IMG/VR virus record: IMGVR_UViG_2693429774_000011
Reading direction: 5' to 3' (one strand)
DNA: 40,169 bases
Source: a virus
Taxonomy: Duplodnaviria > Heunggongvirae > Uroviricota > Caudoviricetes
How positions within the stretch are numbered: position 1 is the stretch's first letter; each line of letters opens with the position of its first letter. A model generated the notes under the pieces. The model ran no database searches and had not been told where the DNA came from. It saw nothing but the letters and a program-made list of their open reading frames with translations. Below are positions 2,947 to 38,155 of the stretch, one piece after another. The position numbers and the translations under genes were made by a program.

Positions 2947-4498
<1,552 letters not shown>

Positions 4499-6406: not shown

Positions 6407-7163
6407 CCCCGGTTTTTACTCAGGGGAATGCTCATGCTTATTGGCTATGTCCGCGTATCAACAAATAACCAGAATACGGAATTACAGCGTAATGCGCTGG
6501 AGTGTGCAGGATGTGAGCTGATTTTTGAAGACAAGATAAGCGGTACAAAGTCCGACAGACCAGGACTGAAAAAGCTGCTCAGGACATTATCGGCAGGTGA
6601 CACGCTGGTGGTCTGGAAACTGGACCGACTGGGGCGCAGTATGCGGCATCTTGTCGTGCTGGTGGAGGAGTTGCGCGAACGAGGCATCAACTTTCGTAGT
6701 CTGACGGATTCAATTGATACCAGTACCCCAATGGGGCGCTTTTTCTTTCATGTGATGGGTGCCCTGGCTGAAATGGAGCGTGAACTGATTGTTGAACGAA
6801 CAAAAGCTGGACTGGAAGCAACTCGCGCACAGGGACGAATTGGTGGACGTCGTCCCAAACTTACACCAGAACAATGGGCGCAGGCCGGGCGATTAATTGC
6901 ATCAGGCGTTCCTCGCCAAAAGGTGGCGATCATCTATGATGTTGGTATATCGACACTGTATAAGAAGTTTCCGGTCGGAGATAAATGAAACCGTAGCACG
7001 TCGTATGCAAGAAGATCGTGCTGCGGTTTATGCTTATCACTTAAAGACTCAAAAATTAGGTGAGTAACGGACCGGGGACATAGCTCCTTTTTTTCTTAAT
7101 TCATCTGGTATTTTTTTTCCAAGATAAAGATTTGCTATTTCAGGTGGGGCTTCTCGACCTTCA
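6365..7163. repeat. inverted-repeat unit A, copy 2
   Basis: reverse complement of 3702-4500. Confidence 0.8.
6434..6988 (+). CDS. serine DNA invertase, copy B (identical translation to copy A)
   Basis: 184 aa; GGGG RBS 7 nt upstream of the ATG. Confidence 0.9.
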   Translation: MLIGYVRVSTNNQNTELQRNALECAGCELIFEDKISGTKSDRPGLKKLLRTLSAGDTLVVWKLDRLGRSMRHLVVLVEELRERGINFRSLTDSIDTSTPMGRFFFHVMGALAEMERELIVERTKAGLEATRAQGRIGGRRPKLTPEQWAQAGRLIASGVPRQKVAIIYDVGISTLYKKFPVGDK

Positions 7164-36048: not shown

Positions 36049-36723
36049 ATGAAAACAATCCATGACATCCGGCGGTCTAACGCCAGAAAACTGAGAGATG
36101 GTGTTGGCGGGAATTCTTCCTTTGCCACTATGATTGATCGCGAGCCAACCCAGACCAGCAGGTTTATGGGAGATGGTGCTACTAAAAATATCGGTGACAG
36201 CATGGCACGACACATCGAAAAATGTTTCGACCTGCCTGTCGGATGGCTCGATCAAGAACACCAGACAACGAACATCACAAAAAAACCTGATGTTTCAATC
36301 ACTAATAAACAAATCACATTAGTCCCTGTCATATCATGGGTACAGGCCGGAGCATGGAAAGAAGTTGGATATTCTGAGGTTGATTTGAGCACAGCAGAAA
36401 CGTATCCCTGCCCTGTACCCTGTGGGGAAATGACTTATATCTTGCGGGTGATAGGTGATTCAATGATTGATGAGTACCGCCCGGGAGACATGATTTTTGT
36501 CGATCCTGAAGTACCTGCCTGCCACGGTGACGACGTTATTGCATTGATGCACGATACAGGTGAAACCACCTTCAAAAGGTTGATAGAAGATGGGACACAG
36601 CGTTATCTCAAAGCGTTAAACCCAAACTGGCCTGAGCCTTACATTAAGATCAACGGTAATTGCTCTATAATTGGTACAGTGATTTTCTCAGGAAAACCAA
36701 GAAGATACAAAATCAAAGCCTAA
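36049..36723 (+). CDS. CI-type prophage repressor (HTH + S24 LexA-like autopeptidase domain)
   Basis: 224 aa, C-terminal GDSMIDEYRPGD and KRL motifs of S24 peptidases. Confidence 0.85.
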   Translation: MKTIHDIRRSNARKLRDGVGGNSSFATMIDREPTQTSRFMGDGATKNIGDSMARHIEKCFDLPVGWLDQEHQTTNITKKPDVSITNKQITLVPVISWVQAGAWKEVGYSEVDLSTAETYPCPVPCGEMTYILRVIGDSMIDEYRPGDMIFVDPEVPACHGDDVIALMHDTGETTFKRLIEDGTQRYLKALNPNWPEPYIKINGNCSIIGTVIFSGKPRRYKIKA

Positions 36724-36762: not shown

Positions 36763-36790
36763 TTGACAATGTACCTTTGAGATACATAAT
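36763..36790 (+). promoter_or_regulatory. PL-like early promoter with operator-like palindrome in the spacer
   Basis: TTGACA, 16-bp spacer, CATAAT; ATGTACC...ATACAT inverted repeat (36769-36787) between the hexamers. Confidence 0.6.
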
Positions 36791-36916
36791 GTACCCAAGC
36801 GAAACAACAAACAGGCAGGACGCCCACGAAGTAGCCGCCTGGGGCATATGAAGTCCAGGATGATTCGTTGAGTCATGTTGTGCCACTAGGCACTCATGTT
36901 AAAGCAGGTGTATGAA

Positions 36917-37192
36917 ATGAAAGTCCAGATTTTAAACAATAACTGTGAAGTCGTTTGGTCATACGACATAGCCGCCCCTGTAGATCAGAGCGGCGATAGC
37001 TGGACCAATGGGAAACATCAGATTATGGCTGGAGTTGTGTTCTCTTTACGCCGTGCTTTGGAACAGGCTGAAGTATTTCCATCAGACCCTGAATGGAAAT
37101 GGCCTTTTTCTATTTGTCCAAATTCGGAGAGCACATTTCAGAAAATTGGTCAGAAAGCCGCACTCGAAGAGCATCAGCCAACTGTTTCCTGA
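36917..37192 (+). CDS. hypothetical protein, first gene of the PL-like operon
   Basis: 91 aa from the third in-frame ATG (AGGTG RBS); not Arg-rich, so not an obvious N-like antiterminator. Confidence 0.4.
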   Translation: MKVQILNNNCEVVWSYDIAAPVDQSGDSWTNGKHQIMAGVVFSLRRALEQAEVFPSDPEWKWPFSICPNSESTFQKIGQKAALEEHQPTVS

Positions 37193-37355
37193 TTTTTTCA
37201 GGTAACTCGTCGGCATCGCAGAAACAACAACGCTCGATCATGTTGAAAGCCGATTCGTAGAACTGTTTCTGCTGAGTGTCGCTGAGACAGGAAAAGAGCG
37301 ACGTTACGATGATTTTATTAATTGCATTATCAAGTTCTTTTTCATCAAAAGTCAT
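37110..37355 (-). CDS. hypothetical acidic protein, convergent with and overlapping the previous ORF
   Basis: 81 aa, AAGGA RBS; overlaps the plus-strand ORF by 83 bp. Confidence 0.35.
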   Translation of the reverse strand: MTFDEKELDNAINKIIVTSLFSCLSDTQQKQFYESAFNMIERCCFCDADELPEKIRKQLADALRVRLSDQFSEMCSPNLDK

Positions 37356-37792
37356 TTGATTTTCCTTTTATGTATACGGGCTTAAAAGGATACCACCGAG
37401 CCTGAAGTGGTGAAAAGACAGGCACATAACAGCTAAGTATTTTCAACCAAAGAGAATCCTTAGCGTTGTGGTGAATGCGGCTCAGCGCACGCGGGTTAAG
37501 GTTGAGGCTGACAGTCGACCTTCTGTGGATACCCACCCGTCTGGTGTGCAACCTTCGCCAGGCACCGGGAGGCACCCGGCACCACAACTTTATGCTGTGT
37601 GTAGTCCTGGCGGTACCAGTTTGTACCCTTGCTTCCGGCTGGTACCGTCCTTTTTACAAAACAGAGAAGAGCATCACCGGACGACGGGCTCATAACCCAA
37701 TCCATCCGGGCGGCTGCCACCGCAGGTGTTCTTCTCTGTTTTGTGGAGAAACTAATCGGCCTTGCAGGGTCGATATGATGAGGAGCAGCAAA
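37356..37792 (+). other. GC-rich noncoding region with nested inverted repeats (possible structured RNA / terminator)
   Basis: no credible ORF on either strand; CGGTACCAG / CTGGTACCG stem (37611-37647) followed by TCCTTTTT; AACAGAGAAGA / TCTTCTCTGTT long-range pairing (37660-37670 with 37730-37740). Confidence 0.4.
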
Positions 37793-38155
37793 ATGGCTAG
37801 CGAACGCAGTACTGATGTGCAGGCATTTATCGGGGAGCTGGACGGCGGCGTATTTGAAACCAAAATCGGCGCAGTTCTCAGTGAAGTCGCTTCCGGTGTG
37901 ATGAACACGAAAACCAAAGGTAAGGTCTCACTCAACCTGGAAATCGAACCATTTGATGAGAACCGTGTGGAAATCAAACACAAACTCTCATATGTTCGCC
38001 CGACTAACCGCGGGAAAATTTCCGAAGAAGACACCACCGAAACGCCGATGTATGTCAATCGCGGTGGTCGCCTGACTATTCTGCAGGAAGACCAGGGACA
38101 GTTACTGACTCTTGCCGGTGAACCTGACGGAAAACTCCGCGCAGCAGGTCGTTAA
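37793..38155 (+). CDS. yfdP: YfdP-like protein
   Basis: 120 aa from MASERSTDVQ...; length and neighbours match the CPS-53 yfdP-yfdQ-yfdR-yfdS block as recalled. Confidence 0.55.
   Translation: MASERSTDVQAFIGELDGGVFETKIGAVLSEVASGVMNTKTKGKVSLNLEIEPFDENRVEIKHKLSYVRPTNRGKISEEDTTETPMYVNRGGRLTILQEDQGQLLTLAGEPDGKLRAAGR

Follow-up and report, generated by a model that had tools for sequence, protein, structure and literature searches.

Between positions 37356 and 37792 of the virus record IMGVR_UViG_2693429774_000011 (the window, a stretch of 40,169 nucleotides (nt)) lies a gap filled with three conserved RNA modules. They comprise an unannotated variant of known prophage small RNA (sRNA) families, made of an STnc100/PasD-like structured core and a DicF-like tail, and an undescribed conserved RNA junction. 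The gap is the counterpart of the "long untranslated region" that contains dicF in the dicBF operon of the Escherichia coli Qin prophage (PMC5069750). On balance, we read it as a non-coding RNA cluster in the early-left (PL) operon of an SfV-type prophage, forming an sRNA locus which is expressed on induction and whose function we infer.

Over its 437 bases, the gap shows 100% identity to Shigella phage SfV (U82619.2) and to a prophage carried by E. coli ECONIH4. According to the SfV annotation, the plus strand of the window is the leftward early operon, with cI (36049-36723), a terminator, orf33, orf32 to orf28, xis and int following each other, which places the gap between cI/PL and orf32 (yfdP). 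The same order of repressor, RNA and early genes was found in e14, ST64B and phiES15. The stretch was matched in 2785 of 5426 complete E. coli genomes and covered to at least 80% in 1814 of them. In every RefSeq record examined, its label is hypothetical protein, frameshifted pseudogene or YmfH, and in none is it RNA. An earlier sequence-only reading had described the region as GC-rich, which it is (0.53-0.57 over 37400-37800 vs 0.37-0.46 in the flanks), and as devoid of a credible open reading frame (ORF), in agreement with the finding that all ORFs inside are short and none has a Pfam family; the end it proposed is exact, as yfdP begins at 37793. What it missed is that there are three separate conserved modules, its "terminator" being the 3′ end of one of them.

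A covariance-model search, recommended by the same reading, found nothing in the window at the curated Rfam thresholds, and matches to STnc100 and DicF emerged in a permissive search only. The STnc100 match (37443-37658, plus strand) spans model positions 1-206 of 206 with 39.5 bits, the E-value being 1.1e-6 for a search of 1.6 kb and 2.7e-5 for the whole window. Because this score is below the gathering score of 47, the core is annotated nowhere as STnc100; RefSeq records speak of a hypothetical protein or ymfH. Both Rfam and our family covariance model returned one core copy in the 40-kb window. The 78.7 bits of the window core on the family model are partly by construction, since the window was in the model seed; sequences outside the seed scored 94.7 (phage 933W), 60.6 (K-12 e14) and 60.9 bits (Qin). 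The hallmark motifs UGGUGAAU and CACCGGGAGGCACCCGGCACCA of STnc100 (RF02076; PasD1/PasD2 of enteropathogenic E. coli (EPEC), EcOnc27/sRNA103 of O157:H7) are present in the window, and the two have in common the closing helix, the 5′ hairpin, the b/b′ hairpin, the P5 hairpin, a terminal intrinsic terminator and a prophage-borne location in Enterobacteriaceae.

The core nested helices are supported by covariation. A 20-nt core motif served to gather sequences from IMG/VR; the 112 distinct sequences obtained fell into 51 clusters at 80% identity, and the searches were thereby limited to sequences gathered by exact motifs. In a model-fitted alignment of 75 distinct sequences, the window included, 95.6% of the cells in nested helices were paired and 15 of the 23 pairs showed double changes, as opposed to 44-54% pairing when the partners were slid by 1-3 columns. 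RNAalifold, which is independent of the model, recovered P1, P2, b/b′ and P5, all with compensatory changes. The P5 stems differ while the loop AGGCA is kept, with CCUGG/CCAGG in Qin and GGUGG/CCACC in loci L163 and L186; across the divergent members Qin, L163 and mEp460, the stem varies around a constant loop. The strand of action is the plus strand, since the G-U pairs of the helices would be A-C mismatches on the other one. Folding of 37459-37660 gave -80.3 kcal/mol compared to -70.8 +/- 4.2 kcal/mol for shuffles (z -2.25).

Helices a and b follow each other in the order a-b-a′-b′, which is an H-type pseudoknot. Since both the MAFFT and the model-fitted alignments lost the register of these two helices, the pseudoknot was tested in each sequence separately against dinucleotide shuffles, by looking in every cluster representative for a pair of helices that cross each other, with fixed constraints on their positions. 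The 51 representatives had a mean score of 27.3 vs 3.9 for shuffles treated by the same procedure, with p <= 0.05 in 40 of them, and the window itself scored 36 vs 5.8 +/- 10.4. Helix a always starts 18-22 nt past the AAU linker, and the helix sequences are unrelated between clusters (AGACUGACAAA/UUUGUCAGUCU, CAGUUAA/UUAACUG, GAGCCA/UGGCUU). In the closest relatives, both the pseudoknot and P5 covary. A single-sequence fold pairs helix a locally instead; this local pairing is uncompensated in ST64B and phiES15, whereas a/a′ is compensated there (AAGGCUG/CAGCCUU).

To our knowledge, a mechanism has been established for no member of the STnc100 family. PasD1 and PasD2 were found by RIL-seq in EPEC and confirmed by Northern blotting, and their stability depends on Hfq (PMC8550237); Zhu, Shabalina and Storz linked PasD and STnc100 by structure and suggested a common origin (bioRxiv 10.64898/2026.05.13.724894). 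In O157:H7, a predicted STnc100 located 3′ of stx2B overlaps the Hfq-bound EcOnc27/sRNA103 (PMC12711010), and STnc100 RNA was detected in outer-membrane vesicles (PMC12370729). Typical family members are found in the late region, between stx or Q and the lysis genes, e.g., after stxB in 933W, and have their own promoter and terminator, with a TTGAC...TAnnnT box ending about 7 nt before UGGUG. The window core, in contrast, sits in the early-left operon after the repressor, a position which its subtype also takes in e14, ST64B and phiES15. Neither the promoter scan nor a comparison with the late-region members revealed a good promoter directly before it. It further differs by a distinct P2 (GCGGCUCAGCGCACGC), the DicF-like 3′ tail and the a/a′ pseudoknot helix, which is outside the Rfam structure line. 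Tandem arrays of 3-5 STnc100-type genes about 250 nt apart were seen in IMG/VR contigs L068 (4373-5466), L014 (2319-3357), L023 and L031. In mEp460 (L129, 2849-2995) and cdtI (L130, 2919-3374), the annotated minus-strand ORFs gp36, gp37 and orf40, which cover either a divergent STnc100-like core or the terminator-junction module, are probably spurious.

The core passes directly into the DicF-like tail, which ends in an intrinsic terminator. A hairpin with a 9-bp stem and a 19-nt loop had been noticed here before; the hairpin and its loop hold, while the stem is really 11 bp long with one G-U pair. The stretch UUGCUGUGUGUAGUCYU between core and terminator is conserved in SfV, ST64B, phiNP and phiES15, whereby phiES15 keeps the seed with a different terminator and ST64B has a compensated terminator stem (GUCGGCGUC/GACGCCGAC). 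On the Rfam DicF model the window tail reached 15.7 bits (E 3 over all 4227 families), far from the gathering threshold of 48, and the intermediates L198 and L186, which have the same module, reached 29 bits. A local alignment to K-12 DicF (RF00039) covers DicF nt 4-59, that is, the seed and the 5′ half of the hairpin, with CUGUGUGUAGUCCUGGCGGUACCAGUUU aligned to CUG-GUGACGU-UUGGCGGUAUCAGUUU, and in both RNAs a U-run follows the hairpin. Both also lie in an untranslated stretch of the operon running leftward from a cI/DicA-type repressor. DicF acts on xylR through its 5′ end and on ftsZ through sequences close to its 3′ end (PMC5069750). As the seed and the hairpin loop of the window tail are unlike those of DicF, the same targets cannot be assumed. 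Against ftsZ (-80 to +45), RNAduplex gave -19.9 kcal/mol, no better than shuffles, in a crude test which genuine DicF failed as well and which therefore speaks neither for nor against this pairing. A match to isrK above the Rfam threshold (64.3 bits) was also seen in ST64B (L004, 19-95, minus strand), inside or beside gene sb41.

The comparison with Qin extends beyond DicF itself. Its untranslated region consists of a structured element framed by GGUUGUGG...CUGCAAC, then dicF, then an STnc100-like core just before dicB, so that in Qin, as in the window, the core is the direct neighbor of the DicF or DicF-like element. The module order differs, being DicF then core in Qin and core then DicF-like tail in the window. 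The window copy also stands in a functional phage, whereas no DicF was found in phage genome databases in the earlier study (PMC5069750). In both loci a long helix follows directly after the terminator. In Qin this is P1 of the core, with 15 bp (2949-2963 with 3074-3088 of locus L237), and in the window the 20-bp stem of the junction takes the equivalent position. A 72-nt form of DicF with an RNase III-made 3′ end has been reported (PMC5069750). Judging by the coordinates and the annotated dicF start, this end would fall at about 2954 of L237, inside P1 of the following core. Neither the Qin core (L237, 2949-3088, 60.9 bits) nor the GGUUGUGG...CUGCAAC element (about 2750-2870) is annotated in MG1655.

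The third module begins right behind the U-run. The sequence-only reading had proposed here an 11-bp long-range pairing enclosing about 60 nt. The pairing exists, although with another size: 20 bp enclose 49 nt, which fold into two further hairpins and make the whole a three-way junction. Folding of 37650-37800 gave -63.4 kcal/mol vs -40.9 +/- 3.8 kcal/mol for shuffles (z -5.9), and none of 200 shuffles was as good. Scanning IMG/VR with the most conserved arm and, separately, with the 3′ strand returned well over 100 loci. Among 59 distinct variants, the structure was 96.2% paired, compared to 41-50% for slid controls, and 11 pairs showed double changes. The third hairpin ranged from 14 to about 40 nt. 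In the IMG/VR loci, the junction was always preceded by an intrinsic terminator and followed by a short covarying hairpin and the first early gene. No Rfam family matched it in the curated or the permissive search, and species-representative genomes from many genera of Enterobacterales contained it when scanned.

The arm of the junction carries an exact copy of the anticodon hairpin of the initiator tRNA. Positions 37685-37698 (CGGGCUCAUAACCC) are 14/14 identical to metZ nt 29-42, the sole metZ match of at least 11 nt in the window, and span the three G-C pairs, the 7-nt loop and the CAU anticodon of the E. coli initiator tRNA (metZ/W/V). In 142 loci picked by the 3′ strand alone, the loop was CUCAUAA in 110, CUCAUUC in 15 and CUCAUUA in 5, and in L239 and L254 the arm stem is compensated (GUG/CAC). 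The junction is nevertheless no tRNA. Acceptor, D and T arms are all missing around the hairpin, which caps one arm of a three-way junction on a 20-bp stalk, and some variants alter loop positions 37-38 (CUCAUUC, CUCAUUA). A partner in cis for the CUCAU loop near the yfdP start was looked for by eye and was not conserved between variants.

Table 1. Features of the RNA cluster and its surroundings in the window, and tRNA-like sequences in the early-left leaders of related phages.
Feature	Position	Strand	Evidence or remarks
PL-like promoter TTGACA-16-CATAAT	36763-36790	+	promoter scan, 11/12 positions; 3′ of the cI terminator
Antisense 81-aa ORF	37110-37355	-	full-length phrog_3311 match, E 1.2e-55; start abuts the gap
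Small conserved hairpin, ACCAC/GUGGU and GCCUG/CAGGC	37392-37423	listed as +	Klebsiella phages about 95% identical
STnc100/PasD-like structured core	37463-37588	+	Rfam STnc100, family model R1, covariation
Core P1 (closing helix)	37465-37473 with 37580-37588	+	
Core AAU linker	37474-37476	+	
Core P2	about 37477-37492	+	
Core helix a/a′	37498-37504 (AAGGUUG) with 37549-37555 (CAACCUU)	+	
Core helix b/b′	37539-37546 (GUCUGGUG) with 37556-37563 (CGCCAGGC)	+	
Core P5, loop AGGCA	37565-37579	+	
DicF-like tail	37589-37657	+	Rfam DicF, pairwise alignment to K-12 DicF
Conserved single-stranded stretch UUUAUGCUGUGUGUAGUCCU	37589-37608	+	
Intrinsic terminator, 19-nt loop, CC-UUUUU	stem 37609-37619 with 37639-37649; U-run 37651-37655	+	
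Three-way-junction RNA	37656-37744	+	fold z-score, covariation
Junction 20-bp stem	37656-37675 with 37725-37744	+	encloses 49 nt folding into two further hairpins
Junction arm	37677-37681 with 37705-37709	+	capped by GGG-CUCAUAA-CCC (37686-37698)
Junction variable hairpin	37710-37723	+	
Short hairpin AUCGGCCU-UGCA-GGGUCGAU	37755-37774	+	minimum-free-energy fold; just 5′ of the yfdP ribosome-binding site
yfdP-like gene, first protein gene after the RNA cluster	37793-38155	+	phrog_204, E 2.5e-49; yfdP in the ECONIH4 annotation
tRNA-like sequence in L204	1077-1203		Rfam tRNA model, 43.9 bits
tRNA-like sequence in L186	1800-1925		Rfam tRNA model, 40 bits
tRNA-like sequence in L198	4364-4488		Rfam tRNA model, 29.5 bits

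The PL-like promoter (Table 1) is the likely source of transcripts crossing the gap. A direct repeat of AATGTACC spans its -35 and -10 boxes (36765-36797; caATGTACCtttgagatacatAATGTACCc), and the repeats may be operator half-sites. The antisense ORF, with a Shine-Dalgarno sequence (AAGGAAAATCAAATG) that is good by sequence, is unannotated in SfV and ECONIH4 and shares 83 nt with the 3′ end of orf33; in e14, this spot is taken by another antisense gene (ymfI). Since the ORF start abuts the gap, the first approximately 90 nt of the latter (37356 to about 37442) are mostly its upstream region. The small conserved element inside this part, with its order ACCAC..GCCUG..GUGGU..CAGGC, may form an H-type pseudoknot, and the minus-strand scan scored it as a weak terminator. 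It precedes different downstream modules in the IMG/VR loci L139, L192, L193, L199, L209, L229 and L232; in L193, for example, it stands directly before a DicF-like tail, with no STnc100-like core between them. At the other end of the gap, the short hairpin before yfdP is replaced in other variants by different yet self-complementary sequences, e.g., GGCGGUGGCAGCCGCC and CCGCCCCUACGGGGGC. Upstream of yfdP in K-12 CPS-53 the RNA cluster is deleted, and the ribosome-binding site alone is in common. A relationship to IpeX of K-12 DLP12 was considered and no match was found. Elsewhere in the window, two weak Rfam CssrB matches of 24.5 bits each (3840-3899, minus strand; 6966-7025, plus strand) lie on opposite strands, which suggests an inverted repeat pair about 3 kb apart.

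If the cluster is an sRNA locus, loss of the repressor would let PL transcription pass through orf33 into the RNA cluster, where part of it would stop at the terminator (37609-37655). A stable RNA of about 70-190 nt would be released by processing at, or immediately behind, the P1 base, and the terminator hairpin and U-tail of the released RNA would bind Hfq. The unpaired stretch UUGCUGUGUGUAGUC could then pair in trans with host or phage mRNAs, as do DicF, PasD and EcOnc27, with the folded core serving as a nuclease-resistant scaffold or a protein-binding domain. Read-through RNA would be cut, probably by RNase III, in the 20-bp stem right after the U-run, thereby both trimming the sRNA and freeing the yfdP-to-int mRNA.

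A regulatory sRNA was one of the candidates of the sequence-only reading, and homology supports it through the full-length STnc100 match, the DicF-like tail and the Hfq-bound relatives; an Hfq-bound, trans-acting nature is known for the relatives PasD (PMC8550237) and EcOnc27 (PMC12711010) and would apply here by analogy. Several points weigh against an sRNA locus. The RNA ends, the Hfq binding and the targets are inferred for the window locus, and the Rfam scores are under the curated thresholds for STnc100 (39.5 vs 47) and DicF (15.7 vs 48) alike. The terminator has a long loop of 19 nt and five U only. The 20-nt core motif looks invariant in the first sequence set only because it was used to gather it. 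Finally, a conserved pseudoknotted core and a tRNA-like arm exceed the needs of a base-pairing sRNA, which hints at another activity.

The gap might instead be the decayed remains of a protein gene, either a frameshifted ymfH homolog on the plus strand or an ORF of the phrog_3651 type on the minus strand. Annotation speaks for it: K-12 has YmfH (103 aa) annotated over the e14 homolog, PGAP calls the window copy a "frameshifted hypothetical protein", and ORFs on both strands match PHROG families (phrog_33599, E 1e-15; phrog_3651, E 8e-50). However, there is no Pfam family match, and since PHROGs are built from predicted ORFs, a conserved RNA region yields such families. The window, e14 and ST64B are separated by 1-nt indels which break the frame. 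The junction lengths range over 90-115 nt, and in 51 of 141 variants the difference from the most frequent length, 90 nt, is not divisible by 3, and some variants are closed by stops in all six frames; only the length classes and these fully closed variants were used, as a test for stop-free frames discriminates poorly over a 90-nt GC-rich junction. Moreover, the substitutions are compensatory for the helices, including G-U pairs that exist on the plus strand only, and the minus-strand ORF of cdtI overlaps yfdP in antisense by 189 nt. The open frame of e14 is owed to mutations that break P5. With this, the remnant of a deleted gene, which the sequence-only reading had also listed, finds no support, and a decayed protein gene is highly improbable. 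The ymfH gene of e14 (L128, 5070-5381) overlies a copy of the RNA cluster that looks decayed because of a P5 loop deletion and a broken P5 pair. YmfH of K-12 is probably not a protein.

The same RNA could also act in cis, as a leader that sets PL read-through into yfdP, xis and int, with the core as a put-type RNA or a riboswitch aptamer and the terminator as its expression platform. The succession of a structured domain, a 20-nt linker and a terminator before the early genes speaks for such a leader, and the module is always directly 5′ of the first early gene. Like the put RNAs of HK022 and the nut sites of lambda, the element lies in the early-operon leader of a lambdoid phage, here one with no obvious N protein; because neither an N-like protein nor a nut site is present, another way past the terminator is needed. 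The b′ segment CGCCAGG (37556-37562) is furthermore complementary to CCUGGCG (37606-37612) at the terminator foot and could form an anti-terminator. This pairing is absent from ST64B and phiES15 and, not being conserved there, was treated as chance. Put sites come in pairs, whereas the window has a single copy and none in the PR operon; its fold is also far larger than those of put and nut, and different. No boxA (YGCUCUUWA) was found on the plus strand in 37356-37792, window-wide counts being equal to chance, and orf33, the first ORF of the PL operon, has neither an arginine-rich, N-like N-terminus nor a Pfam family. These results give no support to the put- or nut-like antiterminator of the sequence-only reading. 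Elsewhere, members of the family occur as independent genes, each with a promoter and a terminator of its own and sometimes arranged in arrays of 3-5, and as Hfq-bound sRNAs (PMC8550237, PMC12711010), and in Qin the core comes after the dicF terminator, not before it. We regard a cis-acting leader as a secondary, rather unlikely possibility.

The tRNA-like features lead to another explanation, namely that the core is a tRNA-derived cloverleaf in which P1 is the acceptor, P2 the D arm and P5 the T arm, the pseudoknot replacing the anticodon arm, and that together with the initiator-like arm it marks the RNA for processing by RNase P or RNase E or acts as a decoy for proteins that bind tRNA. In the early-left leaders of related phages, the frame GUUGUGG...CCACAAC located 5′ of the DicF-like tail holds sequences above the Rfam tRNA threshold of 29 bits (L204, L186 and L198; Table 1), each with a 64-68-nt insert in the anticodon arm, which in L204 contains GGUUCAUAACCC. 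In L198, the T-arm stem, CCGGG/CCCGG followed by CGCCACAAC, is the same as that of P5 in the core. In the closest relatives, P2 opens with GCUCAG, as D arms do, and the junction arm matches the metZ anticodon stem-loop as described above. On the other hand, neither ARAGORN nor the Rfam tRNA model (E up to 10) finds anything in the window. ARAGORN also reported no tRNA or tmRNA in 16 related loci or in the tRNA-like sequences of L204, L186 and L198. The P5 loop (AGGCA), having 5 nt, is not a T-loop, and the CCA at the core end is base-paired. The bodies held between GUUGUGG and CCACAAC vary, including the STnc100-like core, divergent cores (mEp460, L163), a Qin-type element and the tRNA-like sequences, and the common frame could reflect cassette exchange between mosaic phages, not common descent. 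The tRNA-like bodies in this frame suggest either descent of the core from tRNA or cassette exchange at the acceptor-like helix, and we treat them as a lead; tRNA mimicry as the explanation of the gap is doubtful. On the minus strand of L229 (1039-1130), 92 nt match both ends of the tmRNA model, comprising the acceptor and the T arm and ending in CCACCA; the 3′ end of ssrA may have been duplicated here at the attachment site of a prophage.

A further reading centers on the junction as a new class of phage RNA, in which the arm, imitating the anticodon stem-loop of the initiator tRNA, would engage a loop-recognizing factor, with the early-left leader as an array of tRNA-derived modules that includes the STnc100 core. 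Taken as a whole, it appears improbable. In Shigella and Salmonella, which host SfV and ST64B, VapC-type toxins cut tRNA-fMet between A38 and C39. Candidate roles for such a mimic are a decoy for these toxins, or a ligand for the 30S P-site, IF3 or MetRS.

Overall, with the gap read as an sRNA locus of the early-left operon, DicF and STnc100/PasD, which have been studied separately, prove to be neighbors in the untranslated regions of early operons, Qin of K-12 included, and the RNase III-made 72-nt form of DicF gains a structural explanation. To the STnc100 family, a pseudoknot is added whose helices covary across about 50 clusters, and, because a pseudoknot is unusual for an Hfq-dependent sRNA, an extra activity is suggested. 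The junction, which is widespread, strongly covarying, outside Rfam and furnished with an exact initiator-tRNA anticodon hairpin, offers a testable object for the RNA biology of phages and their hosts.

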